Shown here: one piece after another, positions 2,082-53,970 of the stretch | Layout: the number at the start of each line of letters is the position of its first letter | Position numbering within the stretch: position 1 is the stretch's first letter | Source of the DNA: a virus | Lineage: Duplodnaviria; Heunggongvirae; Uroviricota; Caudoviricetes | Direction: 5' to 3' (one strand) | IMG/VR virus record: IMGVR_UViG_3300009008_000002 | DNA: 64,000 nucleotides | Position numbers and translations under genes: made by a program | The notes under the pieces: model-generated | Database searches by the model: none | What the model saw: only the letters and a program-made list of their open reading frames with translations | What the model was told of the DNA's origin: nothing

Positions 2082-2741
2082 TCAGTTTCCCCACACGTAA
2101 ATTACATTTTTTGTAGGATCGGCTGAGCGTGAAATCAACCACGGGAAATAAAATTTCTCATGTGGCAAAGACAATACCTTCTTTTGTGCGTGAGAACCAT
2201 CATTGCCAATGTGGATATACATTTCCACCTGTTCAATTATAGCGGACTCGTCAGCCCCATACACACTGCCTTGTGTTTCGGGCACGCATTCTTCGGGTGA
2301 CACAAATTGCGTCAACCAAGAGGCGATGGCAACCTTGGGTTGTAACCCCTCCACAGCTTCAAGAGCGTCATACTCATAAATATCATCTGGGGGAGTGGTG
2401 ATTGCTTGACCAAGCGCCTCGTAATATGCTCGACACTCTGGACGGTCTTGCATGAAGGAATCAGTTTGTATAATCCCTAAATTCCGTCCCAAGTCACCAC
2501 AACCAGCGCCCAACTCAATGGCAAATCGATCTCTGATTTTATCTTTAAGCCATTCAATCAACTCGACAGTTGGAATACCATATCGCGCACGGGTGCAAGC
2601 CCAGATACGCAGGTGAGTTTGGTCGAGATTAAGATATGTTGAAGCTGGTAGGAGTTTTAAATACTCACCCTCAAGCAAGACTTCATCCAGGTAGGCTACA
2701 TCGGCCTTTGGAAGAATTTGCATTGGGCTATTGGGAAACAT
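2082..2741 (-). CDS. putative class I SAM-dependent methyltransferase
   Basis: Motif-I-like AIELGAGCGDLG with downstream acidic residue; 219 aa. Confidence 0.4.
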   Translation of the reverse strand: MFPNSPMQILPKADVAYLDEVLLEGEYLKLLPASTYLNLDQTHLRIWACTRARYGIPTVELIEWLKDKIRDRFAIELGAGCGDLGRNLGIIQTDSFMQDRPECRAYYEALGQAITTPPDDIYEYDALEAVEGLQPKVAIASWLTQFVSPEECVPETQGSVYGADESAIIEQVEMYIHIGNDGSHAQKKVLSLPHEKFYFPWLISRSADPTKNVIYVWGN

Positions 2742-3263
2742 ACCAGCATTCCTATTAAAAGTAGGGGGTTGTTATCGTACAACCGCCCAGAAAAACGCCC
2801 CTTTTAACTTAAAAGGAAGAAACGTGTCCCTGTTGTAGCACAGGCTCAGAGTAAGCTGGTCATTTCGTTGACACACGAAATTCCGAAAAGAGCGGGGCAG
2901 TTGTCCACACAACTCCGAAGGGGGGCTTTTAACGGTCTTTCGACGGATGGTTAGTTCCCAACCAGCGGTTTTTACGAGAAACCTGCTAAAAACGACGCTT
3001 AAAAAGGCTCTTGTTCCTTTAAATGTTTCAGTGCTGTTTTTATTTTCTCAAAGACACTTGTTGCCAACCTCATGTCGCTCGGTAATTCAGAATTATGAAG
3101 CGTGACTTCAATGAATGCCTTTCTTTCCTGATAAGTTGTATTGTTCTCCCACATGAACATCACCACCTGCATTCGGGAGAATCAGATGGTAACGCCTTCC
3201 CGCTTGTATCTGCGAGCGCTGGTTTACAGCCAGGACAATCATCGCAGAATTCGTGGTCTTCCA

Positions 3264-3980
3264 TCATTCCGATTCTTCCTCCAATTTTTGCTCAACCACA
3301 GTCAGACCGGGAATCCCGGTTTCCTTTTTGAATGTGGCTCTAGCTTCGGTGGCTTGAGCAATAAATGTAGTTTTGTCCTTTTCGTCCAAACCCCTCAAAT
3401 TTGCCAAGGTGTGGGTGTGATCTGTCTCTTCGACTTCCCTTTTTCTCTTTGCATTAGCGACTGCATCTTCTCGTTCGCCTTCAAGGTCGCCCTTTTCCAT
3501 CTTTAAAATTGACAATCTTTGTTCGTGTTGAAGAATCTTTTTGTCTAAATCTTCAATTTCTTCCCTCAACTGAGGGATGAGGCGCTGTTTTTCCTCCAAA
3601 GATTGACTTGTTCGGGTGTAGTGATCCCAGCAATAATTAAATTCTTCGTCGTTTTCAATTTCGGCCAGTCTCGACTCTGCCTCTTCGTGAGTAATATCAC
3701 CCTTAGTCAGCAACTCCTCAATTTCCGCTTTCTTCCTGTTGACGATTTCCTGCGCCATCAGCTTCGCACCCTGAGAGTGCTTTTGTAAGTCAGCAATGGA
3801 GCTAGTAAGACGTTTTAATTCATCCCTTTTTGTTTCACTGCGTATGGTCTGATCTCTTATCATCTCCTCATAGGCCGTGATAGCTGCGCCCTTATCACCA
3901 ACAATTTCATCATAACCAGCACGCACAATGGTGGGATTTCCCAACAATCTCTGGCGAATATTTTCAAGCCATTGCAACAT
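3264..3980 (-). CDS. coiled-coil hypothetical protein
   Basis: Charged, heptad-rich 238 aa ORF; abuts ORF 3981..4682. Confidence 0.4.
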   Translation of the reverse strand: MLQWLENIRQRLLGNPTIVRAGYDEIVGDKGAAITAYEEMIRDQTIRSETKRDELKRLTSSIADLQKHSQGAKLMAQEIVNRKKAEIEELLTKGDITHEEAESRLAEIENDEEFNYCWDHYTRTSQSLEEKQRLIPQLREEIEDLDKKILQHEQRLSILKMEKGDLEGEREDAVANAKRKREVEETDHTHTLANLRGLDEKDKTTFIAQATEARATFKKETGIPGLTVVEQKLEEESE

Positions 3981-4682
3981 TTAACTTTCCCCGTAAGCTG
4001 AACGTGTTTTAGCGATTCTAGCCTCAACCCGTTGTGCCCTTTCAAGACTGCTCTCCATCTCTTCCCGAAGTTCTATCAGGTCATGTGCGTCATCGGCAGT
4101 CATTCGCTGGACTTGATGCACAGCCATCGTCAAGGTTTCCACACTATTTTCAACTTCGGTGATCAGTTTTTCTCGTTCATCCATGAACGGTTGTCTTTTA
4201 TCACCCGGCATGGTCATCGCTTGACGCCACACATCCATGCTCTCGTCCAATTTTTGAATGGATGTATGAAACAATTTCTCGGCGGTATTCAGAAAATTAT
4301 ATTCACGCACCCTGCCGTCTTGAACACATTCCACAAAGACTTTATAAATTGAGCGAAGTTTCCTTAACGCCACTTCGTCTCTGGTGTCCTCGTCTGCTTG
4401 TAGCGCCCTATCCAAATCATCGAGTCTTTTAGATTGTCGCCTCTGGGTGTCCCTTTGCCACTTCATAAATGTCTTGTGGGCAATACTGTTGAAACAAAGA
4501 CATACTCTGGCAAACAAAGAGAAAATAGCCACGCCTACAGCAAGAGCGGCTATGACCCTAAACTGACGAACGCCAGTAAGGGAGAGACACATTGTAAACG
4601 CACCAATCAAACCCGGAATGGCCACAATGGGATGTAGAAACAAAGTCATCAAAAATCTGCGTCTAAATTCTGAATCATTCAT
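3981..4682 (-). CDS. hypothetical coiled-coil protein with hydrophobic (2 predicted TM) tail
   Basis: ORF; hydrophobic segments in the last ~70 aa (per the listed ORF translation). Confidence 0.4.
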   Translation of the reverse strand: MNDSEFRRRFLMTLFLHPIVAIPGLIGAFTMCLSLTGVRQFRVIAALAVGVAIFSLFARVCLCFNSIAHKTFMKWQRDTQRRQSKRLDDLDRALQADEDTRDEVALRKLRSIYKVFVECVQDGRVREYNFLNTAEKLFHTSIQKLDESMDVWRQAMTMPGDKRQPFMDEREKLITEVENSVETLTMAVHQVQRMTADDAHDLIELREEMESSLERAQRVEARIAKTRSAYGES

Positions 4683-5193
4683 TTGCGATCTCTCGTTTGG
4701 CGTTTATTAAAGCACCCATCAAGAACCCAAGTTTCATCATTACCATTGTCTTGTGGTCTTGAGGGTTGAAAAGTGTTGATATAAAAGTTACCAGCACGGA
4801 CCTTGGCAAGAATTTTAATTCTTCACCAACTTGGTCATAAGGCTCCATGTTTCCAAAATCGCCTTCGTCCCAAATCTCACTTAGTTCTTCGATTTTTTCA
4901 GCGACTTCTTGTGGACTCCAGCCATTTTCAGCATCAACAAAGCAAGCTGCAAGCTGAGATAGCTTCTCATCCTTAGTCCCTTCCACTACTTTTGCAACCA
5001 CAAGGTCTACACAAAAGACCGAAGTGTATTCTGGTGGTTCCTCCATTAAATAAGCCACGACTTCACCAAACCGCCCCTCTTGCCACTTATCAACGAGTCC
5101 AGGGCAATATTGAGCATAACTTTCGTTGGCCCATTCATCAAACATTATACCACCTAGCTCCCTATAAAAATAGCCCGGTGCGGTTGCAACCAA
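4675..5193 (-). CDS. hypothetical protein (172 aa)
   Basis: ORF, operon-like packing. Confidence 0.4.
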   Translation of the reverse strand: MVATAPGYFYRELGGIMFDEWANESYAQYCPGLVDKWQEGRFGEVVAYLMEEPPEYTSVFCVDLVVAKVVEGTKDEKLSQLAACFVDAENGWSPQEVAEKIEELSEIWDEGDFGNMEPYDQVGEELKFLPRSVLVTFISTLFNPQDHKTMVMMKLGFLMGALINAKREIANE

Positions 5194-5253
5194 CCGACCG
5201 GGCTATTAGCCAGAACCAACCGTGGGCAAAATCCCAGTAACACACCCAACGGT

Positions 5254-5748
5254 TTACGTCAAAGTTTCATTTGCCAACTTATAAAGTCGTCTCGCATCCC
5301 TCTTTGTTACGCCTTGCTCTTCGGAAATCTGTTGAATCATTTCCCAGTATTCTGCTCTGCGGTCCCGGTCGGTGGTCGGCACTGCCAACAGCAAAGGTCG
5401 AATACTGCTCAAATCTTTAATTTCCGAATCATCATCTTCAATAAACCCTGCTTCCTCTAAGGCTTTTTGAAGTTGAACATGGCCGGGTTTACGATCCTTG
5501 TAAATCACACCCCAGTAAAAACAATGCGCGACTCCCTCTTTTGAACTTCTGCCGAATGCAACTTCAGGTAGAACTTTTAATTCCCCCGATAACCGTTGCA
5601 CCAAAGGACCATACGAACCGAAATCGTGATAATCCTCAACAGCAAAAGCCAACGGCAAATTCAATTGTAGCTCGGCCATAATCTCAAACACTGTGAAAAA
5701 ATGGGGAGTGAGGGGAGGCGGGAGAAGCGTGCAAGCCCGGTCTCCCAC
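5254..5748 (-). CDS. hypothetical protein (164 aa)
   Basis: ORF. Confidence 0.4.
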   Translation of the reverse strand: MGDRACTLLPPPLTPHFFTVFEIMAELQLNLPLAFAVEDYHDFGSYGPLVQRLSGELKVLPEVAFGRSSKEGVAHCFYWGVIYKDRKPGHVQLQKALEEAGFIEDDDSEIKDLSSIRPLLLAVPTTDRDRRAEYWEMIQQISEEQGVTKRDARRLYKLANETLT

Positions 5749-5766
5749 TCACACCCCCACTCTGAG

Positions 5767-7689
5767 TCATTCGCCACCCTTCGCTTCAGGGGCTTCCGTC
5801 GCTCCTGCGGGTGCCGCTTCTTTCTTTTTCGGCGTGACCCGAACCCTTGCGACCGTGCAACCCTCCAGGGAGAGATTGTGCGTATCCGCAAAGTCTTCAA
5901 GGTCGAACTTGTGGTTCAACGCCATGTGGCGATTGTAAACCGCTTCAATCGAAGCCTTAATGTCGGTCGGCAGCACACCAGTTTTGGTGTTATTTTCAAT
6001 ATCACGACGGAGCGCCAACGAAGTTGCTTCATCAATGATACCTTTGACCATACTGCCGGTCAGACAATCACCAAAGGTGAACCAGTGCTCTTCCTTGGAT
6101 GACTTGTCCGTGACCTGATAAATCTTACGACGCTTGTGGAAACAATCAGCCACAGCACGCTTGACCATCTGATCCATTTCCATATCCACAACGGGGATAC
6201 CTCGGAAATGAATATTAAAGATTTCGGTCGCGGCAACCATATTCGGTCGGGCGATTTTAATGTGCTTGTCAACACGACCCTCACGAACCACTGCCGGGTC
6301 CAACATTTTTGGACGGTTTGTAGCCAGCATCACAAGGATGTGGTTTTCAATCAGACCATCCATTTCCGACAGGAACATCGGAACGATGGTCTTGTCCACG
6401 TCGGAGCTACGGCTAGTGCCACGTTCGGACAGGATAGCTTCCGCTTCATCAATGAACAGGATGGCCGGGAAACCATGTCGCTCGTAATGCTTGCGACCAC
6501 GCATGAACAGGGCGCGAATATTCGCTTCGCTATTGCCCACATACATGTTCAGGATTTCAGGGCCTTTGCAGTAGATGAAGCCAGAAGCAATCGCCTCTTG
6601 ACCGTAAATCTGAGCAAGGCTGTAAGTGGTTGCCTTACCAACCAACGTTTTGCCACAGCCGGGAGGGCCATACAACAGCACGCCCTTCGGTGGTTGCTTG
6701 TTGTAGTGGGCAAAGGTTTCAGGGTGACGGAACGGCAATTCCACCGCCTCTTTAATTGCTTCCTTCGCCTCTTCCAGACCACCGATTTCGTTCCAGCTAA
6801 CTTGGCACTCTTGCTCCAAGCAGAAACGCTTATCTGCGGCCAAGTGACCGATAACGATCCGTTTGTGGTTATCCAAGATAACCCGGTCGCCTTCCGTCAC
6901 GGGGTTTTCGCCTTCCGGCTCGACGCCGTTATAAACCCGTTTCTTCTCGCCACCAACTTCAACCTCCATGACCGGCTCACCTTCCAGTGGGTCGGAAATC
7001 ATGCAGATCACGCCGTCTTCGGGAGTTTCGGATTTGTCGATAATTTGCTTGGACTGCAAATTAACTTTCACTTTGCTGCCGGGGCCGAGATCCATACCCG
7101 GAATGGCACCGACTTCATAGGGAGTCTCGCCAATCACCACCAAAGCGTAGATGCCGTCATCCTTGCCCAGCAATTTAACTTGGGCCGGATCTTTTTCGGG
7201 CAAACCAACCGCAAAGCAGTCCGGTGAACCGTCTTTAAAAACGACATTCACTTCGCCAGCATCACGGTCATAGGCAGTGATTTTCGCTACCTTCTCGTAG
7301 CGTGGGTGTTCCTGATCAGTCACCCAGCAAATATCCTCTACCTCGAACGCATCGGGGTTGACTTCGGTATTGCATTCGACAACGCGACCATAGACCTTGG
7401 GCGCAGCCAACACTTGTGCGAGTTGGGAGTCCAGAACAGCGATGGCACCTTGAGCCTCTTGCAAGGCTTCTACCAACTCCGCATATTCGTCAGCAGTCGG
7501 AACATGCCGTTGCCTCTCTTCACCTTCTTCCCCACCACGGGCAGGGACAGGTGGAGCCAGACCAGTGTGATGCTGCGGGGGCGCAGCAGTCTCGCCTTGC
7601 TCTTGCTCTTGCCTTTCAGCATTTTGTGCCCTCATTGCACTCAGAAAATCCGGGTGATCGGGCTGCACGCTTCTTTCGTCTTGACTCAT
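5767..7689 (-). CDS. AAA+ ATPase, proteasome-associated ATPase (ARC/Mpa/PAN)-like; N-terminal coiled coil and OB-like interdomain plus single AAA module
   Basis: Walker A GPPGCGKT, Walker B ILFIDEAEAI, second region of homology; the IGGLEEAKEAIKEAVELPFRHPE lead-in is typical of classical AAA proteins. The long N-terminal region resembles the ARC interdomain. Confidence 0.8.
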   Translation of the reverse strand: MSQDERSVQPDHPDFLSAMRAQNAERQEQEQGETAAPPQHHTGLAPPVPARGGEEGEERQRHVPTADEYAELVEALQEAQGAIAVLDSQLAQVLAAPKVYGRVVECNTEVNPDAFEVEDICWVTDQEHPRYEKVAKITAYDRDAGEVNVVFKDGSPDCFAVGLPEKDPAQVKLLGKDDGIYALVVIGETPYEVGAIPGMDLGPGSKVKVNLQSKQIIDKSETPEDGVICMISDPLEGEPVMEVEVGGEKKRVYNGVEPEGENPVTEGDRVILDNHKRIVIGHLAADKRFCLEQECQVSWNEIGGLEEAKEAIKEAVELPFRHPETFAHYNKQPPKGVLLYGPPGCGKTLVGKATTYSLAQIYGQEAIASGFIYCKGPEILNMYVGNSEANIRALFMRGRKHYERHGFPAILFIDEAEAILSERGTSRSSDVDKTIVPMFLSEMDGLIENHILVMLATNRPKMLDPAVVREGRVDKHIKIARPNMVAATEIFNIHFRGIPVVDMEMDQMVKRAVADCFHKRRKIYQVTDKSSKEEHWFTFGDCLTGSMVKGIIDEATSLALRRDIENNTKTGVLPTDIKASIEAVYNRHMALNHKFDLEDFADTHNLSLEGCTVARVRVTPKKKEAAPAGATEAPEAKGGE

Positions 7690-7776
7690 TTAGGAAACTC
7701 CCTTCAACACGATTGGAAATCATCAAGTACCGTCATTCTAACATGAATCTTGGCACTGTGAAGTAAACTACAATTT

Positions 7777-8151
7777 TTACTCGCTCTCGTCTTGACCCGT
7801 CGCATGTGCGAGTGATCGTAAAAGAAACTGAGCAACGGCGTCTCCACTACATGCCAAATGGATCAACATATCACGGATAACCTCTTTACAATCATCCGTT
7901 TTCATAGCCAATGCTTCCATTGGTCGCTGATCATTTGCCTTACGGTGTAAATTCTCCACCGTAAGGACAATCACGTTTTTTGTCCCATCAACTTTTTGTT
8001 CCTGAACCATTTCAGAAATGGCCTCAGTCTCAACCCGCGTCAGTGATTTATCATGTTCATCTGGACCTTGTAGGTGCCCAGATTCAAGACTGACGTATTT
8101 TACTGGCATTGCGCTATATGGCATTTGTTGTAACTCCCACCTGTGAAGCAA
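7777..8151 (-). CDS. hypothetical protein (124 aa)
   Basis: ORF. Confidence 0.35.
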   Translation of the reverse strand: MLHRWELQQMPYSAMPVKYVSLESGHLQGPDEHDKSLTRVETEAISEMVQEQKVDGTKNVIVLTVENLHRKANDQRPMEALAMKTDDCKEVIRDMLIHLACSGDAVAQFLLRSLAHATGQDESE

Positions 8152-9961: not shown

Positions 9962-10469
9962 TTTCTAATTTATGATCTTCCGATGGTAGTTCGTGATCAT
10001 GTCGAGGTTCATCTGCCTGTGGAAACTCCCGCCAGTCAGAACCATCTTGTAATGCAGTGGTATCCATTCCGACAATTGTGCCGCCACCCAAAATACTTTG
10101 TTTCAGGCCGGAAACCTCCATCATGGGCAACCAAACAAGATTTAAAAACTCCTGTTTAGTCATATGGTTGCTATTAAACAACCCCAATGCTCGTTCAATT
10201 GTATTGATTTGCATGGCGAGATTCATGGCACCATCGCCACGAACAAAATAACCCGGCCAATCATCGCCAAATTGAACAGCACCAGTCTCTATGCGCGGAG
10301 GTAAGTTCTCCCCCCGTGACATGCCGCCATTGTTAGGATAATCAATCTTCTGAATTGTCACGATCACCCTCCAATGCTGCAACGAACTGACGCTGAACTG
10401 GAAATATCGGAAAACGGGGCAACTCAAACACCTTCTCTTGCTCAACCAGATCAGCGCCAAAGAAGGCAT
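9951..10469 (-). CDS. hypothetical protein (172 aa)
   Basis: ORF. Confidence 0.4.
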   Translation of the reverse strand: MPSLALIWLSKRRCLSCPVFRYFQFSVSSLQHWRVIVTIQKIDYPNNGGMSRGENLPPRIETGAVQFGDDWPGYFVRGDGAMNLAMQINTIERALGLFNSNHMTKQEFLNLVWLPMMEVSGLKQSILGGGTIVGMDTTALQDGSDWREFPQADEPRHDHELPSEDHKLESED

Positions 10470-10713
10470 TTAAAAAGTCCGTAGCCACTTCGTCTGGTAT
10501 CTCTGTTTCTTTGTCTTCATGCGCCAGCGACAACTGCAAGCCTTGTATATCCTCATACAAATTGATAGTCAAGACACAGACGATTTTATATTCATCGCTG
10601 TATGCATACTCTCTCATGCAACCTGTATCAGCAATTTGCCCAGACTTCATGGGGTGTTGCCTCGCAAACACCTTCATCTCTTCCACAAGCTGTTCAATTG
10701 TGATCATGCACAT
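10342..10713 (-). CDS. hypothetical protein (123 aa)
   Basis: ORF immediately downstream of the TIR gene. Confidence 0.35.
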   Translation of the reverse strand: MCMITIEQLVEEMKVFARQHPMKSGQIADTGCMREYAYSDEYKIVCVLTINLYEDIQGLQLSLAHEDKETEIPDEVATDFLNAFFGADLVEQEKVFELPRFPIFPVQRQFVAALEGDRDNSED

Positions 10714-11759
10714 TTTAATTCTTCCCGTCTCAAGTCCCGAACCAATCGTTCAAACATCCAATTCTCTGGATAGGGTGAATCGAAATCATAAACGAAAGTC
10801 TCCAATAAATTATCCGGCACTTGATCAAGTGGCATCAAACGAATTGGAAAAAACTTTCGCTGATTTTCTCGTGCCCATTTAATTTCAGCTTTCACCCACT
10901 GGTTCTTCAAACTGAATTTAGACAAAATCACTATGAAATTATCATGCTCGGAAATGGCTTCTTCAATCTGTTCGTGCAGCTTGCTGCCGCCTCTTAAATT
11001 ATCATCAGCGAACCATACCCGAATCCCTCTTGCCTGCAAATCCAGATACACTTTGTCTGCAATAGCCTTATCTTCCCCCGCATAGCTAAGGAAACAGGAA
11101 ACATCGACTGACGGCTGTTGGTGTCCCCGTGGCGTTCTAATTTTCCCATGTCGGAGGGCATTATACTGCCCATCCGTCAAACAATGAAGATAGGTAAGTG
11201 AATCATTGCCGAAATTACCGAAACCCGGATGGCACTGACCTGATAAAATGGCTTGAAGTCCTGGCCCCAAACACCTACCGATCTCAGCTAAAAGGCGATT
11301 ATGGTCATGGAAATTAATGTCGTAATCCACAAGAGGCAAAACAAACACTGGGTCTACAACACTGGTTGCGTGTCTTAAAATTTCAATAGCTGGACGGATG
11401 TTTTGCTGCAATTCAAAATTCATCTGAGTAAGCTGCACACTTTGAGCAGCATAATCATCCAACGAATGTGCTGAGCGTGCAGGATCGTAACCTTGACACG
11501 CTGCATTTCGTTTTAAATTTTCAACAATCTCCCTTCCCTCATATTGATGCCAAGCACGCTCTCCCAAGGCAGCACGCTCCATCTGGCTAATTAAAAAAAG
11601 AAGACCGGCAGTGCTTGGAGGAACGTATGTAACTTCGTCCATCCAAATAGCACGACCTTCCAATTCGGAAGCAAGTCGCTCTAATTCGTGTTGTTTGAAT
11701 TCAAGCATCCTTCCGCCACCATCCATCTTCAGATTCGGAACGCTGTCGCTGGGCCACAT
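10704..11759 (-). CDS. TIR-domain protein (C-terminal TIR; ~230 aa N-terminal domain of unknown function)
   Basis: C-terminal VDVSCFLSYAGEDKAIADKVYLDLQARGIRVWFADDNLRGGSKLHEQIEEAISEHDNFIVILSKFSLKNQWVKAEIKWA matches the TIR boxes (FxSY, GEDxR, RGI..F.DD, I..AI..S...IVILS, W...E), including the conserved glutamate. Confidence 0.8.
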   Translation of the reverse strand: MWPSDSVPNLKMDGGGRMLEFKQHELERLASELEGRAIWMDEVTYVPPSTAGLLFLISQMERAALGERAWHQYEGREIVENLKRNAACQGYDPARSAHSLDDYAAQSVQLTQMNFELQQNIRPAIEILRHATSVVDPVFVLPLVDYDINFHDHNRLLAEIGRCLGPGLQAILSGQCHPGFGNFGNDSLTYLHCLTDGQYNALRHGKIRTPRGHQQPSVDVSCFLSYAGEDKAIADKVYLDLQARGIRVWFADDNLRGGSKLHEQIEEAISEHDNFIVILSKFSLKNQWVKAEIKWARENQRKFFPIRLMPLDQVPDNLLETFVYDFDSPYPENWMFERLVRDLRREELKCA

Positions 11760-12870
11760 AAGCTGTAGCAGACTGCCGTTGTCTCGCTTGTTCCTCTCTA
11801 ATTTCCTTAGAGAGTTGCATGTCCTGTTGCGTATAGATTTCTTGATCCATTACCCAGTGTGGAACTTTTGCACCACCCCTGAGAGTTCGAGCTTCAGAAC
11901 CATCCAAGTATCTCCCAAATGCGTAACTGCACTTGTTAAATACGCCGAGCAGATTGTCGAAATTCTTAACCTCGACCCTTGGGTTGATGAGCCACTTTGA
12001 CAACAAACGAGATTGATTTGCGGGATCAGGATGGGTGTCCTTATCGACGTGCGACCAAAATTCATAAGCCAATTCTGGTATATCTCGTTCAATAGCGAGC
12101 AAGTAACTCGCAAATACTGCTGACCAGATAGCGCCTCGATGAATGTGGAATTTCTTCTGCATATTCATATTCTTAAATTGCAGAAAGAAAGAGGGGTAGG
12201 TGAACATTAGTTCTTCTACCTGTTCCGCTTTCAATTTGGGCATGGTGTCATCACCATGAAGTCGTCTTATCTCGTAGTAGAATTTAATACCACGGGACAT
12301 TCTCGCAACACCTTCCATTGATCCCGTCAACAATTCTGACAGAGCTTCAGTAGCACCAGCATTGGCTGCTAGACATTCTTTGGTAGTTCTGGACGACCAC
12401 CGATTGTCAAATTGCTTAAACAACTGACCTTCGCCTGCTGAACTATAACATTCGTAGGTATCCAGATGAACTGCCTCTGGCGTGCGGCCATCACCGGGAT
12501 GAAACAGCCCTCTCTCAATTAAATAGAGGAAAAGCGCAATGCTGTGCTGACAGTTAATTTTACGCATACCAATTCGTTCACCATTCTCATCATCCCAAAG
12601 ACAGTCTGCAACCACCCACTCACAGGGATGAAATGCGCCTTCTCGCCATTTCTCAAGCAGCCTTTCAATTTGCTGCCTTCCTCTCCTGATAGTTATGTCG
12701 CGGTTGCCTTTGTAATTGGCCATTTCAGCAAGTGCCACAACTAAGTCAGTAGTCAGTGGAACAACACTGGGCGTGCGGATTTTAAACTCCATTTTAATTG
12801 GTTCATCGGGAGTAAAACCAACCATGCAAGGATCAAGAAAATCAAAATCACTCAATTCAGGTCTGGCCAT
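11701..12870 (-). CDS. hypothetical protein (389 aa), overlaps the TIR gene start by ~59 nt
   Basis: Long ORF with no recognisable motif; translationally coupled with the TIR gene. Confidence 0.45.
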   Translation of the reverse strand: MARPELSDFDFLDPCMVGFTPDEPIKMEFKIRTPSVVPLTTDLVVALAEMANYKGNRDITIRRGRQQIERLLEKWREGAFHPCEWVVADCLWDDENGERIGMRKINCQHSIALFLYLIERGLFHPGDGRTPEAVHLDTYECYSSAGEGQLFKQFDNRWSSRTTKECLAANAGATEALSELLTGSMEGVARMSRGIKFYYEIRRLHGDDTMPKLKAEQVEELMFTYPSFFLQFKNMNMQKKFHIHRGAIWSAVFASYLLAIERDIPELAYEFWSHVDKDTHPDPANQSRLLSKWLINPRVEVKNFDNLLGVFNKCSYAFGRYLDGSEARTLRGGAKVPHWVMDQEIYTQQDMQLSKEIREEQARQRQSATAYVAQRQRSESEDGWWRKDA

Positions 12871-13483
12871 TGTTCGTGCCTTTCTTTTTTCTACCTCGTT
12901 GCTTTTTTAAATCTCCGTTGTCGAGCAATTCTCGACAATATCCTTCCATTTTTTTCGCAATATGTTTCATCTGCGGAACTACAGAACCAGAAAATGGAGC
13001 ATCTGCCAAATCTCCAAGTTGTTGACACCATGCATACATTTTCAACACTCTGTCTTCGTTTAGCGCCTTTATTACGCTCACAGGGGGCTTTATATCTTCT
13101 GGTAGTATTTTTCCACCACTAACCAATTCCTTCTGTCGCGTCTTAAGATAGACACCAGAAATTCTAAAACCCCTTTGCATGTTGATTCTACCATCACGCA
13201 CCGCCGCCAAAACCTCTGGATCACCATCCCTGATAATTTTTAATGCATTGCACAATCTTTTCTTGGCTACATTGTGTTTGTCAGCAAATTCCTTTTGCCT
13301 TGCTTTTGTGCTTTCTCCTGTAGCCAACATATCCTCAACGGCTTCAATGGCTCGTTGATTGGTTTGGCGTTCCGCTTCAGAAGTTGTTTCGGTTGCAGAA
13401 GTTGTTTCGGTTGCATTAGACATAAATTGCGTTCTCCCATTGGCCCTTCTCTGGGTCATCGCTCCCAGGTTGTATTTCTTCAA
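12857..13483 (-). CDS. hypothetical protein with tandem ETTSATETTS duplication
   Basis: ORF; contains an 18-nt tandem direct repeat (agaagttgtttcggttgc x2, 13378..13415). Confidence 0.4.
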   Translation of the reverse strand: MKKYNLGAMTQRRANGRTQFMSNATETTSATETTSEAERQTNQRAIEAVEDMLATGESTKARQKEFADKHNVAKKRLCNALKIIRDGDPEVLAAVRDGRINMQRGFRISGVYLKTRQKELVSGGKILPEDIKPPVSVIKALNEDRVLKMYAWCQQLGDLADAPFSGSVVPQMKHIAKKMEGYCRELLDNGDLKKQRGRKKKGTNNGQT

Positions 13484-18174: not shown

Positions 18175-19482
18175 TTAGGCCGCAACTTTATCAAAAAGTG
18201 AAGCCGTGCCTTGCACAACTTCCTTCGTAATAAGGTATTCTTGGCCACGAGGTTGTTCGGACAGATTGTATTTAATCTCCAACATGAACCCTTCGACTAC
18301 ACTTCGCAATCCTCTTGCACCAGTTCCTTTTTCCTTAGCCAATTTTGCGATTTCTTCAAGGGCATCCGGCGTGAATTCAAGTTTGGCCTTATCAAAATCG
18401 AAAAAGACTTGCTGTTGTCGAACAAGAGCATTTTTGGGTTCAGTTAAAATCCTGATAAGATCATCTACAGCCAACTCATTCAAACTGCAAATGACTGGCA
18501 GACGACCAACTAATTCAGGAATTAAACCATAACCGTGTAAATCATCAGGCGTGACGCATGAGAATAATTCATCCTTGTTTCTTTCAGCGTCAGTTACACC
18601 ATCCTGGCCAAAGCCCATCTTTCGCTTTCCAAGACGCCTTGAAACGATCTCGTCCAATCCAACGAATGTGCCACCGCATATAAAAAGGATATTACTGGTG
18701 TCAAGTTGGATGTATTGCTGTTCGGGATGCTTTCTTCCGCCTCCCGGTGGAACATTGGCAATCGTTCCTTCCAGCATTTTTAATAGAGACTGTTGCACGC
18801 CTTCGCCAGATACATCACGAGTGATCGAGACATTCTGCGACGTTTTTCCAATCTTGTCGATTTCGTCAATATATATGATGCCGGTTTCGGCTGTCGGAAC
18901 GTCAAAATCGGCTTCTCGCAAGAGCCGAAGCAACAGGTTTTCTACGTCTTCACCAACATAACCCGCTTCGGTAAGAGTAGTGGCGTCACCTATTGCGAAG
19001 GGAACATCCAACATTTCGGCCAAAGTTCTGGCTAGAAGCGTTTTTCCGCAACCAGTTGGCCCCAAGAGCATTACGTTGGATTTTTCTAACTCGACCTCAT
19101 CGAGGTTTTTTGAGCCTTGTGCGTGCATTAGCCGTTTGTAATGGTCAATGACTGCCACGGCTAACGTTTTCTTTGCTGCCCCTTGACCGATTATATACTG
19201 ATCAAGGTGTTCTACAACTTGTCTTGGCGACGGCAGGTGGTTGATTTCACTCACATTGATTTCTTCAACCTGATCTGTATTCCAACCCTCTTGTTCTCGC
19301 AGTGATACGCACTTATCTACACAGCTTGAACACGCAAAAACCTGTTCATCACCTTCTTTTATGACTCGATTTCTGGAACCTGGACCCCTGAATAGGGGGC
19401 CGGTATCGCTATTTGGACGGCCACAAAAGTCACAATAGCGACGTTTCGTACGTGGCGCGCCTCTTTTTTTCTGTTTAGCCAT
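18175..19482 (-). CDS. clpX: ATP-dependent Clp protease ATP-binding subunit ClpX
   Basis: N-terminal C4 zinc-binding domain (CDFCG...CSSCVDKC), Walker [24 protein letters not shown] Walker B, MGFG (IGF-loop-like) ClpP-docking tripeptide, sensor-2 region; overall ClpX architecture. Confidence 0.9.
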
Positions 19483-26661: not shown

Positions 26662-28104
26662 CTAATCTTCACTTCTTGACCCATCACCGCACATTCGCAC
26701 GATTTTAGGATCGAATTGCGCCACGATTTCCACAAGGTCAGCCTGTTCCATCATAACATTGTGGATATTTTTATAAACCCCCGGCACTTCGTCTGCGCCA
26801 GCAGAAAGCACCCTAACCCCTTTACGGGCAAGGTCTTCTCGCACTGCCTTCCAATTGTATTTATCTTTCGCTTTTTTTCGGGACATAACCCGACCTGCGC
26901 CATGTGACGCAGAATACAGACTATCGGGATTACCCATACCACGAACGATAAACGCTGGCGTAGCCATAGAACCTGGGATTACACCCAACACACCTGGGCC
27001 AGCAGGAGTAGCACCTTTTCGGTGGACAATTACCTCTCCAACATCCAGAGAGTGCATTTCTTTCCACGCAAAGTTATGGTGATTCTCCACGTCCCAGAGG
27101 ACTTCGGCACCAGTTAATTTCGCAAGCTGCTTATGGATCACGTCATGGTTCGCAGCCGCAAATCTACCCATCAACTCCATCGCCAGCCAGTATTCCTGGC
27201 CTTCCTCAGAATCTAAGGACAACCAAGCCAGACGCCCCAAATCTTCTTTATATCGAGGGTCCAACTTCATTTGCGCAATGGCGCTGTATTGCTGGCAGAC
27301 AGTGCTTCCTGGCCCTCTTGAGCCAGAATGCGACATAACCGCTACATACTGCCCGGCAGGTAAAGTGAGGCTCTTTGGCACATGCGGATCACTAGCGGCA
27401 TGTGAATGATCATCAGGAATAGTAACAAGTCCAAATTCCACAAAATGATTCCCACTACCACTTGTCCCAAGCTGGAGGACCGCTTTATCTTTTTGGTCTT
27501 TCGTGACGCTGGTGACAGACCAATCATCATCAAGAACAGGATGATTTCGAGGCTGATCATATACAGCGCTACCTTTATTACCGATTCCAAAGCGAGTTCC
27601 TTTCTCCAAGGCTTCCTTGAACAAATTAAACTTGGAGTCCAGGTGGGTCACTGGCAAATCCAAGACCGACAATTTCATTCGACAGGCAATGTCAACACCT
27701 ACCGCGTAAGGACACACGGCATTTTTAAGAGCCAACACCCCGCCAATTGGCAGTCCGTAACCCAAGTGCGCATCCGGCATTAGCGCAGCACCAACCGCAT
27801 CTGGCAGACTACATGCCTGCTTCATTTGACCGTGGCAAGACTCTTCAATTTGGTCGCCTCCCCACGTTTTATAATCAATCGGCTCTGGGCGCACGAAATC
27901 ATTGTTCTCGATCACTGCCTTAGCGAAATCGCCCCAGTGTTCATGGTCAGCGTATTCACCCGGAAGTGCCAAAACGTTTTTTATCGTATTTTTCAGAACA
28001 TTGGTGCGCACATGTCCTTTGATACATGCAGACTGAATGCCCTGGATGCACGCTTTCAAGCAAATTTCCGGCACGCCTAGTTTTCGTAAAGCCTTGTTAT
28101 TCAC
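26662..28104 (-). CDS. rtcB: RNA-splicing ligase RtcB (3'-phosphate/5'-hydroxyl RNA ligase)
   Basis: MPDAHLGYGLPIGGV, GSGNHFVEF, HSGSRG, HNFA motifs of the RtcB family; 480 aa. Confidence 0.9.
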   Translation of the reverse strand: MNNKALRKLGVPEICLKACIQGIQSACIKGHVRTNVLKNTIKNVLALPGEYADHEHWGDFAKAVIENNDFVRPEPIDYKTWGGDQIEESCHGQMKQACSLPDAVGAALMPDAHLGYGLPIGGVLALKNAVCPYAVGVDIACRMKLSVLDLPVTHLDSKFNLFKEALEKGTRFGIGNKGSAVYDQPRNHPVLDDDWSVTSVTKDQKDKAVLQLGTSGSGNHFVEFGLVTIPDDHSHAASDPHVPKSLTLPAGQYVAVMSHSGSRGPGSTVCQQYSAIAQMKLDPRYKEDLGRLAWLSLDSEEGQEYWLAMELMGRFAAANHDVIHKQLAKLTGAEVLWDVENHHNFAWKEMHSLDVGEVIVHRKGATPAGPGVLGVIPGSMATPAFIVRGMGNPDSLYSASHGAGRVMSRKKAKDKYNWKAVREDLARKGVRVLSAGADEVPGVYKNIHNVMMEQADLVEIVAQFDPKIVRMCGDGSRSED

Positions 28105-28108
28105 GATC

Positions 28109-28624
28109 TTACCTTTGAATTAAACTGGATGGTTTCGTTTTCACTTTCTCAACGAAACTCTCCAATTTTTGTCGGTCATACTCCAAAGCATCTACTGCTT
28201 GTTGAGGGGTCATAGCCTTCCAAGCTCGGTAGCTGCCATAATTGGTTTTGAGAGAGGAGTTACACTCCATCCAACCACTATCTGTAAACTGGGTCTGCCA
28301 AAACCGGGCAATAAGAGTATCCATATCCGTTGCAGCCCGCTTATAGTGGCCTCCACTATACCCCAAACAGACTGCTGCGTATCGACCAATGACATTGGGA
28401 ACGGATGGCCAGTAGACAAACTCATCGTCTTCTTTAGCAAAGGCTAAGAAGAGATAAGAGTGTTTCTGGTATTTCCTATGGCCAAAGACCAAATATGGAA
28501 AAGGCAAAAAATAAATATTGCTATGGTGCGAAATACACCTCTTCTGAGGGGGATATTTCCTTACCTCATACCCTCTCCCCTTCGCCAACACTTTGTACTG
28601 GGTCGCCATACCCGAAATCCTCAA
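28109..28624 (-). CDS. hypothetical protein (171 aa) sandwiched between rtcB and the kinase-SLOG gene
   Basis: ORF; operon position only. Confidence 0.4.
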   Translation of the reverse strand: MRISGMATQYKVLAKGRGYEVRKYPPQKRCISHHSNIYFLPFPYLVFGHRKYQKHSYLFLAFAKEDDEFVYWPSVPNVIGRYAAVCLGYSGGHYKRAATDMDTLIARFWQTQFTDSGWMECNSSLKTNYGSYRAWKAMTPQQAVDALEYDRQKLESFVEKVKTKPSSLIQR

Positions 28625-29576
28625 ACACTTTTAATAAAAATTTGACAGTGAATTCCTGAATTCCCGGTGATTTACTCTCTCTGTTGCCCGCAATATTGAC
28701 GATTCGTATATCGTTTTCCTGAAACCAAGCCTTTACAGTTTCAACTTGTTCAGAGAAATCGTTTTTCGGATCAACGTCAACATAGGGCTTGTTGTAATCT
28801 CGAATTCCCTTCAGAGTGCATTTCTCGCCCACAGAACCCCAATTTGAGGCAATTCTGATTGTGCCATCAGAATCCTTGGCATTCAACCGAGTTCTAGGGA
28901 CGTAACTATCTGTCTCCGTTTCAGTTAGGCCAAGCACCTTCAACTCAGGACTCGCCCCTTTTTCTGTTCTAAAGCCTTTGGGAATCCACCCGCCAGTGGG
29001 TATTTTCAGCATATATGCGGCTTGCAATCCGCCCTGATCAGCACCAGTTTGGCCACCAGAAATTACCCTTTCGACATTATAACTGGTTTTCCCCAACTGT
29101 GAACTTACAATTTCACTAAACCCTTCTTCAGCCTGAACTTCCTGATAAACAGACAAGTGGTGGCGGGCATTCACCAACCAACGCTCATACGAAGTGCCCC
29201 TAGAATCGTGTTCCGTTCGTCTCTTAGCATGAACCTCTGGGGATTCTATGGGAAACAGTATGGCGATTGGTTCCGCTTCAAGGCTCTTGGCAAGAGCAAT
29301 CCAACGGACACGACTTTGACGAGCAAGGTTCAATCCCCTATCAATTATTACATCTTTGCCCATAGCAATGGCAATATGTAAAATATGATCTTCGATAGAC
29401 TTGTAAAGGGGCTTTAATTCTTTGGAATAAAGAGTGTAGACGCCACCATGAACAGCAGTCACGATGGAATCGTCATTTATGACGATAGCACCTTCTTGTG
29501 CTCTTTTTGCTGAGTAGGTTGACTTGCCAGAGGCAATCATGCCTACCAGAACTTCAATTCTAGGTTTGCTTTTCAT
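28566..29576 (-). CDS. P-loop polynucleotide-kinase-like domain fused to C-terminal SLOG (MoCo-carrier/YpsA-like) domain
   Basis: N-terminal Walker A VGMIASGKST, then IVINDDS and DRGLNL…R (PNK/zeta-like kinase layout). C-terminal ISGGQTGADQGGLQAA…GGWIPKG…DSDGTIRI matches the SLOG/MoCo-carrier-like signature. Confidence 0.7.
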   Translation of the reverse strand: MKSKPRIEVLVGMIASGKSTYSAKRAQEGAIVINDDSIVTAVHGGVYTLYSKELKPLYKSIEDHILHIAIAMGKDVIIDRGLNLARQSRVRWIALAKSLEAEPIAILFPIESPEVHAKRRTEHDSRGTSYERWLVNARHHLSVYQEVQAEEGFSEIVSSQLGKTSYNVERVISGGQTGADQGGLQAAYMLKIPTGGWIPKGFRTEKGASPELKVLGLTETETDSYVPRTRLNAKDSDGTIRIASNWGSVGEKCTLKGIRDYNKPYVDVDPKNDFSEQVETVKAWFQENDIRIVNIAGNRESKSPGIQEFTVKFLLKVFEDFGYGDPVQSVGEGERV

Positions 29577-34045: not shown

Positions 34046-34732
34046 ATGTCTGGAAAAAAAGAACACGTAGAAACAAAAGTATTCCAGCACGGGAAAAAGA
34101 TTCTCCTGAATATCCACCACGCCGATGACAAAATGCGCGGACATCGAGTTTCCGTCTACATAGCCCGTGATCAGAATGAATTGTTTGGTGATTGGTTGTG
34201 CGACGTTCAGACCTACGATGCCGAAGCCGACGATGGAGAATGGTTCCTCACGTTCCGGGGTAGTAGAGAACTTCCCGAAGAGATCAAATACAAGCGATGG
34301 CCCAGCTACAGAGCTGCCATAGACTTCTACCTACCCTTCAGTATAGCCGTTCGCAACGAAACCGAACGACACCCTCTCCCTGAAGATGTTACCCAAATTC
34401 TGGAAAGTTGGTCAAGATCGCTGTCTGACGAACGGAAAGAACTGGATAGTCGGTATCATGCCCTGATGCGCCGACGATGGGAATTAAAACACCTAGCTGA
34501 CAAATACAATTTGACCAGCCTTGGGTATCAGAATGAAGACACTGACAAGGCTCAAGCACTTCGTCGTCTGCTAGATTTTGAACACTGGATGGAGAAAGAA
34601 GAAAAGACTATTCCGTTCTTTTCTGAAGCTGTTCTCTACGAATTGGTGGGCAAGGAAGACGCCCGCACCATTCTAGCTCTATTGAGGGGTGTAGCAGAAC
34701 ACATTGATCCAGAAATCGCTAAGGAGATTTAA
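34046..34732 (+). CDS. hypothetical protein (~228 aa), divergent from the NYN gene
   Basis: Plus-strand ORF not contradicted by minus-strand genes; start set at the second Met. Confidence 0.4.
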   Translation: MSGKKEHVETKVFQHGKKILLNIHHADDKMRGHRVSVYIARDQNELFGDWLCDVQTYDAEADDGEWFLTFRGSRELPEEIKYKRWPSYRAAIDFYLPFSIAVRNETERHPLPEDVTQILESWSRSLSDERKELDSRYHALMRRRWELKHLADKYNLTSLGYQNEDTDKAQALRRLLDFEHWMEKEEKTIPFFSEAVLYELVGKEDARTILALLRGVAEHIDPEIAKEI

Positions 34733-34782: not shown

Positions 34783-35061
34783 TTAGTCTTGTTGAGGGAC
34801 AATAGTGGTTTTCATGCGTTCACGCCTCTGTTGTCTCTGATCCTTCCACCTATAAACCGCATCCAGTCGTTCTAACTGCTTATGAACCTTTTCCATTGCA
34901 AACTCAATATCACCGAAAATCATGTAGTGCAAGGAATTAGGACGACGAAGAACATTCTCTAGCGCCTCTGCCGCTCGGACAAAATCGGTCCACGCCTTCT
35001 TATCTTGGGGGTCTACCCCCTCAGCGATCATGTCTTCTTTGTATTCATCGTAAGATTTCAT
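34783..35061 (-). CDS. hypothetical protein (92 aa)
   Basis: ORF. Confidence 0.35.
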   Translation of the reverse strand: MKSYDEYKEDMIAEGVDPQDKKAWTDFVRAAEALENVLRRPNSLHYMIFGDIEFAMEKVHKQLERLDAVYRWKDQRQQRRERMKTTIVPQQD

Positions 35062-35134
35062 GTTTTTCGTTTTCTCCTATCTGTGAATTTATTTATGCCT
35101 TGACACTATTATAATTGTAATCTATAATTTTCAT

Positions 35135-35446
35135 ATGCATATTAAAACCCTCACAGATATAATCGATCTTTGCCTCGAAGAAGTCATGCTCGTAGGAAAT
35201 TTCTCGTTCATGGCAGTAAACGGAGGCGTGATGGTCTGCTATAGCTGTCCTGTGGATAACGCAAGCAGACTGGAAATCCAAGCACTATTAAAAGATGAAG
35301 GTGAATTCTCCAACGGAGAAGTGGAAGTTTGGGCTTGTGAAGCCAATGGCATTCAAACCTACTCCAAAGTAGACATCATCGAATTAATCGACGTGCTTCA
35401 AAAGAAAAAAGACATATTAATACAAAAACCCGCCCCAAGTAATTGA
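35135..35446 (+). CDS. hypothetical protein (103 aa)
   Basis: ORF. Confidence 0.3.
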   Translation: MHIKTLTDIIDLCLEEVMLVGNFSFMAVNGGVMVCYSCPVDNASRLEIQALLKDEGEFSNGEVEVWACEANGIQTYSKVDIIELIDVLQKKKDILIQKPAPSN

Positions 35447-35702
35447 GACGGGCTTTGTCTGTACCTTTGTCACCCGGATGATACATGTATTCTATGTATT
35501 TTTATGTCCACAACGCTTGACGGCAAACAGTTACAGCGGCAACATAAGCGCCACTTGTTGCGCTACAAAGCAAATTGAGCTTTGGGCACCTTACATAAAA
35601 GTATTGCCATGTAGTGTTGGTATACACACCGTTTGACTTCCTACAATTATAAGCTGGCATAAAAAATCCCTCCTTAAAAAGGCTCATGCTAATCTCTTAT
35701 AT

Positions 35703-36530
35703 TTAGGTAGGTTGGGCGTATTTTTGAATATCTTTTAGGTAGAGAATTTTATTTCCCTTCGTTATCTGCTCTGTAGTGTCTGGCCTCTTCCGGCGCATAT
35801 ACTTCATAGTGCAATCACCTTCGTGATATATAAAGCTCTTTACAGAGATGGCTTGACTGAATCCGTAAGCTCGCATTCGCTTGGCAAATTCCGCATTTTC
35901 GTAACCAGCAAAGGGATAATGCTTTATGTGTCCTATCCTATTAAATAACTCACGATGACACATTGCACAATACAAAGGTAAATACTCATCCTCTTCATCA
36001 AGGACAATATCCGCAAAATCTGTTTCTTCATCTGGAATCAGGGATGCAGAAGACTTCATCTTAAAATTATCAACTGTAGGGTTATTAGTCAAAGGTGCTA
36101 CCATCTTAATGCCTTGATCCTTCAGTTTCATCATAGATTGACCCAAATTAAGGAGCCAGCGAGGCTCTTTAATCAGACAATCTGAGTGCATTATCACCAC
36201 CCATTTGAAAATCGGCTGATTCTTACGCCTCACCTTATCTAGCGCCTCAATTCCCTTCTGAATACACGCTCCAAAACCAATTTGCTCATCATTTCTGACC
36301 TCTAGCAAATTCGGTATTTGCCCAAAACCGTATTGAATGAAATCCTGATTAGGTGAAGCATCATCAACCAAACAAATTCTAAAATGAGGCGTCATGGTGT
36401 GATGAATTAAACTTGTTACTAACGATGCTACCTTTTCATATTGACCATAAAAAGGAATGACCACATCCACATATTGATCTGAAAAAAGAGGGTGATCATC
36501 TACAAAATTAAAAACTTTCGATTTTCCCAT
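35703..36530 (-). CDS. family-2-like glycosyltransferase
   Basis: VVIPFYGQYEKV…ICLVDDASPN (GT-A fold DxD region). Confidence 0.5.
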   Translation of the reverse strand: MGKSKVFNFVDDHPLFSDQYVDVVIPFYGQYEKVASLVTSLIHHTMTPHFRICLVDDASPNQDFIQYGFGQIPNLLEVRNDEQIGFGACIQKGIEALDKVRRKNQPIFKWVVIMHSDCLIKEPRWLLNLGQSMMKLKDQGIKMVAPLTNNPTVDNFKMKSSASLIPDEETDFADIVLDEEDEYLPLYCAMCHRELFNRIGHIKHYPFAGYENAEFAKRMRAYGFSQAISVKSFIYHEGDCTMKYMRRKRPDTTEQITKGNKILYLKDIQKYAQPT

Positions 36531-38744: not shown

Positions 38745-38807
38745 ACAAAAAAAATTCCTGCTAACTAACTTATTTTAAGTGAGTAACAATATTCAGGAGT
38801 CGAATAA

Positions 38808-39722: not shown

Positions 39723-39723
39723 T

Positions 39724-40785: not shown

Positions 40786-40801
40786 TTTTATTATATACAG
40801 T

Positions 40802-42949: not shown

Positions 42950-42962
42950 ACTTTATTAAAGT

Positions 42963-44695: not shown

Positions 44696-44703
44696 TCCGA
44701 GAG

Positions 44704-45315: not shown

Positions 45316-45322
45316 GGGGGAA

Positions 45323-46702: not shown

Positions 46703-46703
46703 T

Positions 46704-47549: not shown

Positions 47550-47609
47550 TTTAAATCTCTCAACAGACAGACCACCCCTACTATATAAAATACTAGGAAA
47601 ATCAAGAAA

Positions 47610-53936: not shown

Positions 53937-53970
53937 TCTTTCTCTCCTTTCCAACACTATATAAAATACT

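Follow-up and report, generated by a model that had tools for sequence, protein, structure and literature searches.

A TIR domain fused to a phage-specific N-terminal domain in a large phage-like genome, probably a stand-alone effector beside an unrelated gene pair

The window (the whole 64,000-nucleotide stretch of viral DNA that was analysed) carries a gene for a TIR-domain protein whose start is overlapped by the end of a 389-aa gene. Do the two genes encode the sensor and the effector of one system, as the original prediction suggested, or does the TIR protein act by itself? We favor the second reading with a probability of about 0.6: a stand-alone, single-polypeptide effector, encoded by a domain-swapped member of a huge-phage family and lying beside an unrelated module. 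What is shown directly is to which domains and families the following features of the locus belong, and how often particular genes adjoin them.

10704..11708, minus strand: gene for the fusion of an N-terminal domain (N-domain) and a TIR domain (N-TIR), 334 aa from the homologue-conserved start
11130..11708, minus strand: N-domain, residues 1–193, a rare unannotated family
10779..11099, minus strand: TIR domain, residues about 204–310 of the 334-aa protein, with Pfam, PADLOC and PDB matches
10884..10886, minus strand: GAA codon of Glu275 (E292 in the 351-aa numbering), the catalytic-Glu position by alignment to RUN1/PdTIR
11701..12870, minus strand: 389-aa gene of an unannotated family, the N-terminal domain of its product being tentatively ParB/Srx-like and the C-terminal one helical
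12857..13483, minus strand: 208-aa HTH-like ORF (called by JGI with 188 aa), its stop overlapping the start of the 389-aa gene

The longest form of the TIR gene is the minus-strand ORF 10704..11759, and the length of 351 aa given earlier holds for this form. The start, however, is likely to be the ATG at 11708 (MLEFKQ...), the first residue shared by all homologues, which shortens the protein to 334 aa; the JGI gene call starts at 11726 and gives 340 aa. With the start at 11708, the overlap with the upstream 389-aa gene that had been described measures 8 nt and takes in the stop of that gene (ATGCTTGA); at its other end the TIR gene shares an ATGA with the downstream ORF 10342..10707. The identical N-TIR protein is present on three contigs, two of which, Ga0105013_1007304 (19.9 kb) and Ga0105000_1001413 (53.0 kb), were read; they come from two JGI samples (3300007510 and 3300007511). 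Both ORFs are real and more than chance reading frames: the TIR gene because its N-domain has a dN/dS of 0.09 against an 82%-identical relative, and the 389-aa gene because 91 homologues of it were found and its AF2 model reaches a pLDDT of 88.6.

The TIR gene is one of a long series of closely spaced genes that all run in the same direction. The genome that contains it appears to be large and phage-like, of at least 193 kb, and the mobile-element setting assumed earlier agrees with its gene content (tRNAs, RtcB, kinase-SLOG, ParB-like and UvrD proteins, PHROG matches). Structural genes were not seen in the window, and blastn of the region against phages matched a tRNA-Met only. RtcB and a kinase-cpYpsA SLOG protein (28566..29576, 17 kb from the TIR gene and the sole SLOG protein) are further putative counter-defence genes.

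The presence of a well-preserved TIR domain at the C-terminus was confirmed by profile searches. Pfam TIR_2 (PF13676) matched residues 223–327 of the 351-aa ORF with an E-value of 2.7e-22 and 80 bits against a cut-off of 28, TIR (PF01582) scored 26.9 bits against a cut-off of 21.3, and ThsB_TIR (PF08937) was barely above its cut-off (21.6 vs. 21.2 bits); TIR-containing PADLOC models also matched. The best solved-structure matches, found with phmmer against the PDB, were PdTIR (3h16), AbTir and the plant proteins RPV1/RUN1 (entries 3h16, 5ku7, 6o0w, and 7uwg). These proteins share with ours the betaA motif 'FLSYxGED', the BB-loop 'DDxLRxG', and the WxxxE catalytic motif; they differ in that identity is low, the match covers the TIR domain alone, and what precedes this domain is unrelated. 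The WxxxE motif is intact (W271...E275 in the 334-aa numbering), with 'NQWVKAEI' aligned to 'SRWCLDEL' of RUN1 and 'KEWPQKEL' of PdTIR. The Glu at the catalytic position, which the original prediction regarded as retained, is thus E275; that the Glu of this motif is catalytic is established for TIR NADases. An AF2 model of the protein had a pLDDT of 54 overall and 30–45 over the TIR region, the four-sequence alignment behind it having no TIR coverage. The TIR part of the fusion is known from a single sequence, and the sole close relative is a fragment ending before the TIR. By its motifs and matches, the domain appears to be a genuine TIR of the NAD-cleaving type, and the protein is probably a regulated NAD+-cleaving enzyme.

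An improbable alternative is that the TIR domain serves as a non-enzymatic decoy or adaptor, capping or entering host TIR assemblies (Thoeris ThsB, TIR-SAVED, TIR-STING, etc.) and thereby blocking immune signalling. It would resemble the bacterial and viral TIR-like proteins that interfere with Toll-like receptor (TLR) signalling. The phage-like genome with its long co-directional array, the additional putative counter-defence genes, and the rarity of TIR domains in viruses, where they are considered 'enigmatic' (PMC9503650), fit such a role, but a pure decoy would need neither the catalytic Glu nor the WxxxE motif, both of which are kept, and the literature searches brought up no precedent.

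The N-terminal part, described earlier as unrecognisable, indeed had no match in Pfam, PADLOC or PHROG when the profile check was run. It belongs to a family of nine protein clusters (the window's own and eight others) on huge-phage-like contigs, with profile E-values from 1e-39 to 1e-97. The family is marked by the motifs LPLVDYxINFHD and (C/Y)(L/M)TDGQY(N/S)xxRxx(K/R)(I/V)R, and many of its invariant positions are polar (E10, E25, D84, D128, N132, D135, T178, D179, Q181, Y182, R186, and R191). Neither the N-domain nor the TIR part had a relative in scans of IMG/VR, and tblastn with the TIR protein had no match in 50,697 GenBank phage records or in PLSDB plasmids. One short locus was seen in a GTDB genome scan.

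The seven full-length relatives have a short non-TIR C-terminus of ~50 aa with a 'KIxYxDPxTGFxGE' module, and the N-TIR architecture was found in this sequence alone within the N-domain family. At all seven loci of these relatives, a gene of ~330–340 aa overlaps the start of the N-domain gene; at the six loci for which DNA was available (all but P0011), the overlapping gene (~335 aa) was confirmed as a member of one family, here called U. Neither tblastn nor hmmsearch --max detected a U homologue in the window; here the U gene is absent and the usual C-terminal module is replaced by TIR. In the syntenic relative L006, which shares an AAA protein (57% identical) and others with the window genome, the U-N module is at a different position; therefore, the N-TIR gene has relocated. 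The closest N-domain relative, L059 (82% aa and 79% nt identity), loses homology with the window at the start of the N-domain gene, and its upstream ORF is a third gene that matches neither U nor the 389-aa family. Between these two sequences the dN/dS value, calculated for the N-domain only, was the 0.09 given above, a sign of strong purifying selection on this domain.

The U family is unrelated to the 389-aa protein: the two were compared by BLASTP and HMMs, with no similarity. The C-terminal peptides of the two genes look alike (ESEDGWW against DESAGRW). It was therefore considered whether the 3' end of a U gene had given rise to the final ~40 nt of the 389-aa gene; the idea was dropped, as 315 of 2000 shuffles gave a local alignment that was as good.

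The 389-aa protein had been described as an ORF of unknown function. It has no match in Pfam, PADLOC, PHROG or NCBIfam, nor by sequence in the PDB, and in that respect the description stands; it is not an orphan, however, since it belongs to a family with 91 representative matches, whose N-terminal domain (about residues 29–153) has a tentative ParB/Srx-like fold. The tentative likeness is to the ParB/Srx superfamily (ParB, KorB, PadC, sulfiredoxin, and DUF262/DndB). The domain carries the motif RKINCQHS, for which the family consensus is YRVNGQHSS, and an alternative start of the gene, M27 at 12792, is where the homologues begin. No member of the family reached a curated cut-off in Pfam (best E-values of 0.003 and 0.006, from a single member each), NCBIfam gave zero matches for 50 members, and neither GenBank phages nor PLSDB plasmids contained a tblastn match to the protein or to two family members. 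When the family profile was compared by hhalign with the ParB_N protein encoded in the window itself, the result was not significant.

The neighbours of this family point away from the TIR gene. At 36 of 49 loci, an adjacent gene of one of three families lies upstream on the same strand, and the 208-aa ORF of the window matches such neighbours at L010 (E=7e-8), L016 (2e-4), and L025 (6e-3) in phmmer searches; another of these neighbours, at L017, has near-threshold ParB_N and HTH matches. The 389-aa gene and the HTH-like ORF thus appear, from these neighbourhoods, to be a separate conserved pair unrelated to the TIR gene. Downstream of the family lie phage genes for replication, recombination and packaging, and the genes beside the pair in relatives include ERF, SSB, PDDEXK-like DUF3799, HNH, terminase and integrase; because relatives' pairs adjoin such phage-type genes, the pair probably serves in DNA binding or regulation.

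The proposal that the 389-aa protein is the functional partner of the TIR protein would make the former, possibly with the HTH-like ORF, the sensor of a defence or counter-defence operon: a ParB/Srx-like protein binding DNA or NTP would detect foreign DNA and activate the TIR NADase. The overlap of the two genes was the feature behind it. Overlaps of 1–26 nt occur in 16 of 35 adjacent same-strand pairs of the 21-kb locus, however, and the overlap is not a specific signal of partnership, because about half of the adjacent gene pairs here overlap. None of the 49 loci encoding the 389-aa family has a TIR-like or N-domain-like ORF, and TIR is absent among the Pfam families listed (25 of 32) for 68 downstream neighbours. 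Further points against the proposal are that the conserved companion of the 389-aa family lies on the opposite side, that relatives of the N-domain gene are preceded by U or the third gene, and that the 389-aa protein has no PADLOC match. A promoter and terminator scan at the locus gave matches at chance level. We found no evidence in these comparisons for a two-gene sensor/effector system, and the 389-aa gene does not appear to be the partner of the TIR gene; we consider the operon still less probable than the decoy. Computation leaves room for a newly evolved association of the two genes in this one genome.

Least probable of all is that the fusion arose recently by recombination and has no function, being carried along in an accessory region that is shuffled fast. 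Its unique architecture and the patchwork surroundings, with flanks differing between close relatives, could suggest this. Against it, the reading frame is intact, all TIR motifs are kept, three contigs carry the protein (two of them read, from two samples), and the N-domain is strongly conserved by selection.

We therefore return to the single-polypeptide effector. The ~190-aa N-domain would have been kept, and the ~50-aa C-terminal module, whose usual U gene is absent, would have been swapped for TIR. TIR NADases need head-to-tail assemblies. The N-domain may be a regulatory or clustering module which binds a trigger or self-associates and so would bring the TIR domains into such assemblies; Glu275 would then cleave NAD+, the product being ADP-ribose, a cyclic ADPR isomer, or both. 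The enzymatic activity, the part of the N-domain and the biological role are what we infer. With regard to the role, one tentative candidate, short of an even chance, is that NAD+ depletion keeps out competing phages or mobile elements; equally plausible is that the protein helps to take over the host or interferes with its TIR/NAD+ immunity; some other role is a possibility to which we give a little less weight. A broader proposal, unlikely in our judgement, is that the N-domain family forms a new huge-phage conflict module with a swappable output: usually this would act via the short C-terminal module and U, and here the replacement of both by TIR would give a weapon that cleaves NAD+ once triggered, or an enzyme that jams signals, directed against rival phages or host TIR/SLOG immunity. 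In that reading, the kinase-cpYpsA SLOG protein of the phage itself might work jointly with the N-TIR protein.

Among known systems, SpbK of the Bacillus subtilis element ICEBs1 provides the working model. It is an element-encoded, single-protein TIR NADase activated by clustering, and its activity needs head-to-tail TIR assemblies triggered by the binding of a multimeric phage protein (PMC12847820, PMC11984713). N-TIR is likewise one polypeptide with a TIR domain encoded by a mobile-element gene, and clustering as in SpbK may apply to it; SpbK, however, protects the host against phage, whereas the N-TIR gene sits in a phage-like genome. SpbK was absent among the PDB matches at E<=0.01, provided that its structure was in the copy searched.

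Thoeris consists of a ThsB TIR and a ThsA effector, the latter with a SIR2, Macro or TM domain plus SLOG. The likeness lies in a TIR that could make cyclic ADPR-type signals, the matches to the ThsB models being weak (PF08937, 21.6 bits; PADLOC ThsB, E=4e-6). The architecture with a 190-aa N-domain is unlike ThsB, and no SIR2, Macro or SLOG match was found in the neighbours of the TIR gene on both sides, nor was a ThsA-like gene adjacent. Phage-encoded TIR domains have been described in TIR-SLATT neighbourhoods of small Firmicute phages by Iyer et al. (2022), who noted that TIR is rare in viruses and suggested that it limits superinfection (PMC9503650). The N-TIR gene differs in that it has no SLATT or other membrane partner beside it, its genome is large and jumbo-like, and its N-terminal domain is also different. 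A phage-encoded TIR of the N-TIR type was not described in the literature searched.

Setting aside the unsupported two-gene claim, the value of the locus lies in a single unusual TIR fusion. Three families with no annotated match or known function were found in the course of the analysis. N-domain and U genes make up one conserved pair; the gene of the ParB/Srx-like family has an HTH/ParB-like gene upstream as its companion. Bacteria, plants, and animals all use TIR domains as a central part of their immunity. In viruses these domains are rare and unexplained (PMC9503650). A TIR grafted on a phage-specific N-domain in a jumbo-type genome would lend itself well to the question of what use an NAD+-cleaving domain is to a phage, whether in competition between phages, host takeover, or counter-defence.

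Both ORFs of the original prediction were found, with exactly the coordinates and sizes claimed (351 and 389 aa). The features of the locus are as follows.

10704..11759, minus strand: TIR ORF, 351 aa as the longest ORF
10884..10886, minus strand: codon of the WxxxE glutamate of the TIR domain, E292 of the 351-aa ORF and E275 of the 334-aa protein
11701..12870, minus strand: 389-aa ORF, overlapping the start of the TIR ORF
11701..13483, minus strand: HTH-like 208-aa ORF (12857..13483) plus 389-aa gene; relatives at loci L008-L056
13496..13571, minus strand: tRNA-Met (CAT), directly upstream of the HTH-like ORF

The sequence shows the C-terminal third of the 351-aa ORF to be a genuine TIR domain, as had been predicted. 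Pfam TIR_2 matched residues 223-327 with 80 bits against a cut-off of 28 (E=2.7e-22), PF01582 TIR was the second Pfam match, and ThsB_TIR was barely above its own cut-off; the same stretch was also matched by TIR-containing PADLOC models and five PHROG families. A phmmer search of PDB sequences aligned the domain with PdTIR (3h16), RPV1/RUN1, and AbTir. Because the segment ...SKFSLKNQWVKAEI aligned to ...ENYARSRWCLDEL of RUN1 and ...KKEWPQKEL of PdTIR, the WxxxE glutamate is retained; according to the literature, it is the catalytic residue of TIR NADases. The predicted overlap of the TIR start by the 389-aa ORF was also confirmed; the protein itself is probably shorter than 351 aa, the true start being most likely ATG 11708 (MLEFKQ...), giving 334 aa. 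All homologues begin at the matching position, and from this start the gene shares a classic 8-nt overlap, ATGCTTGA, with the upstream stop. The JGI gene call is 340 aa, from ATG at 11726.

In none of the comparative tests run did the proposed two-gene sensor/effector pair hold up. Overlap is not a specific sign of coupling here: of the 35 same-strand neighboring pairs in the 21-kb locus, 16 share 1-26 nt, the TIR gene stop overlaps the start of the next gene downstream (ATGA), and the 389-aa gene begins before the 208-aa ORF has ended. A word-indexed protein search with the 389-aa protein returned nothing beyond itself, and exhaustive phmmer against 1.84 billion cluster representatives found 91 related proteins at E<=1e-3; at E<=1e-10 there were six, the window's own protein among them. 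Typical family members are 280-330 aa long, with alignments spanning residues ~30-330; R57, H109, R161, F271, and W272 are invariant, and the consensus YRVNGQHSS reads RKINCQHS in the window. Searches of Pfam, NCBIfam, and PDB sequences gave no match for the family; one member matches PHROG 5931, a family of unknown function. The N-terminal ~125 residues are tentatively ParB/Srx-like, an assignment we slightly favor; no assignment was obtained for the helical C-domain.

Among 1,327 ORFs in 49 loci of this family (45 from the metagenome scan and four from other look-ups), none resembled the window TIR domain or the N-domain profile (residues 1-193 of the TIR protein), also with every HMMER filter disabled. 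Among 68 downstream neighbors, a Pfam scan gave DUF3799/PDDEXK, ERF, SSB, HNH, terminase large subunit, integrase, resolvase, helicases, and HTH; TIR was absent from the 25 families listed out of 32. The conserved neighbor was instead the adjacent same-strand upstream gene, which came from one of three families in 36 of the 49 loci; in most of the remaining 13, the contig was too short to show it. Some upstream neighbors carry, by eye, a ParB-like LDGHNR motif and an HTH; one had near-threshold Pfam ParB_N plus HTH matches, the others no Pfam match. Since the 208-aa ORF resembles the upstream neighbors in L010 (E=7e-8; this locus encodes the protein closest to the 389-aa one), L016, and L025, the conserved unit is the HTH-like ORF with the 389-aa protein, the TIR gene being, by these comparisons, merely the next gene downstream. 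L008 and L009 also have an integrase gene, a few kb upstream of the family gene. The locus is best read as two mutually unrelated modules lying side by side by chance. The sensor/effector idea had made the finding attractive; what remains, as far as the sequences tell, is a single-gene N-domain–TIR fusion.

The N-domain proved as unrecognizable as predicted: residues 1-200 of the TIR protein matched no Pfam, PADLOC, or PHROG model. Among 5.8 billion proteins, the TIR protein retrieved an identical protein and one 82%-identical fragment (P0002); a profile search added seven clusters (P0003, P0005, P0008-P0012). These share a ~190-aa N-domain with many invariant polar residues and the motifs LPLVDYxINFHD and TDGQY(N/S)xxRxx(K/R)(I/V)R, and end, without a TIR, in a ~50-aa module (KIxYxDPxTGFxGE...). 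In every readable locus of the relatives (L003, L005, L006, L007, L057, L058, and the contig of P0011), a gene of ~330-340 aa overlaps the N-gene start by 8-13 nt. In the six L loci, for which DNA sequence was available, the upstream proteins belong to a single family, U: the first four are 34-66% identical to one another, and L057 and L058 matched with HMM E-values down to 1e-180. The U-N modules are as follows.

L003: 2127-3862
L005: 114-1855
L006: 6992-8900
L007: 6994-8792
L057: 1991-3759
L058: 1994-3747

Neither U (~335 aa) nor the N-domain protein with its short module (~250-300 aa) had a Pfam or PHROG match. The two-gene module is conserved in huge-phage-like contigs up to 603 kb. No U homologue was found in the 64-kb window; the 389-aa protein showed no similarity to U.

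Over window 2085..8151, gene order is shared with the 13-kb contig L006 (AAA protein 57% identical, five further ORFs matching, 216/219-aa proteins 54% identical), which by this synteny is a relative of the window genome. Its U-N pair lies at the opposite end of the shared block, where the window carries other genes; therefore, the N-domain gene occupies different positions in related genomes. In L059, the closest N-domain relative (79% nucleotide, 82% amino acid identity over the N-domain), nucleotide similarity starts 18 nt inside the N-domain gene, and the upstream ORF has no match in U, in the 389-aa family, or anywhere in the window. The dN/dS between the window and L059, covering the N-domain only as L059 ends before the TIR region, was ~0.09, so the gene is functional.

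The window sequence is found identically in JGI metagenome contigs, of which the longest on record has 193 kb. Genes near the TIR locus are nearly all small, co-directional, and without annotation; the sole DNA match of the 10-14 kb region in GenBank phages was the tRNA-Met (CAT), and a promoter and terminator consensus scan gave matches at no more than chance level. The window encodes two tRNAs, an AAA protein, a ParB_N protein, several PHROG-only families, and the following.

18175..19482, minus strand: ClpX-like AAA+ protein
26662..28104, minus strand: RtcB RNA ligase (E=4.5e-85), adjoining the next gene
28566..29576, minus strand: fusion of AAA_33-type kinase and circularly permuted YpsA SLOG, 336 aa (PF12694, E=4e-38)
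34346..34435, minus strand: tRNA-Trp (CCA), 90 nt, unusually long
39724..40785: Fringe-like glycosyltransferase
42963..44069: UDP-galactopyranose mutase (E=3.8e-73)
54719..57418, minus strand: UvrD-like helicase, 899 aa, downstream of the next two
57536..59281 and 59317..60966, minus strand: tandem SPFH/Band-7 proteins
61056..61895: NinI-like phosphatase, beyond the SPFH/Band-7 genes

No structural genes were seen in the 64-kb window; from gene content, we infer that the genome is that of a jumbo or huge phage, probably lytic. Such an origin fits the matches of the ClpX-like protein: the top one among GenBank phage records was the 595-kb uncultured phage LR756511.1 (54% identity), and Bacillus phage G gp258 is 49% identical. 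A low-GC island at ~35000..54000 (GC 0.32-0.41 against ~0.45 elsewhere; genes on both strands), holding the mutase and the glycosyltransferase, could represent a cassette for surface-glycan modification or a block acquired horizontally. The kinase-SLOG fusion and RtcB look like an RNA-repair or counter-defense pair. TIR and SLOG are encoded 17 kb apart; viral YpsA-like SLOGs are predicted to bind or degrade cADPR-type signals (PMC9503650).

All seven full-length relatives combine the short C-terminal module with the U gene, and the window lacks both, which suggests that the module could be the link to U; in the window lineage, TIR would have taken over as output in place of both. TIR NADases are active only when their TIR domains are clustered into head-to-tail assemblies. 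SpbK, an element-encoded single protein, is clustered through its binding of a multimeric phage protein (PMC12847820), and the window protein may, by analogy, follow the same logic: the N-domain would provide trigger binding or self-association, and Glu275 of the clustered TIR domains is predicted to cleave NAD+. A non-catalytic decoy is possible, but it leaves the retained catalytic motif unexplained. Viral TIR domains have been found rare and called enigmatic, with limitation of superinfection suggested (Iyer et al., PMC9503650); the gene position in the long co-directional array would fit host takeover or counter-defense just as well.

Prokaryotic conflict systems often contain TIR domains joined to N-terminal domains of unknown function, and a few TIRs from phages are already known. 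We give a rough probability of 0.2 to a reading in which the N/U family represents a novel conflict module of huge phages whose outputs can be swapped, the window protein being its TIR-armed version. Both the architecture of the N-domain–TIR fusion and its setting are new.
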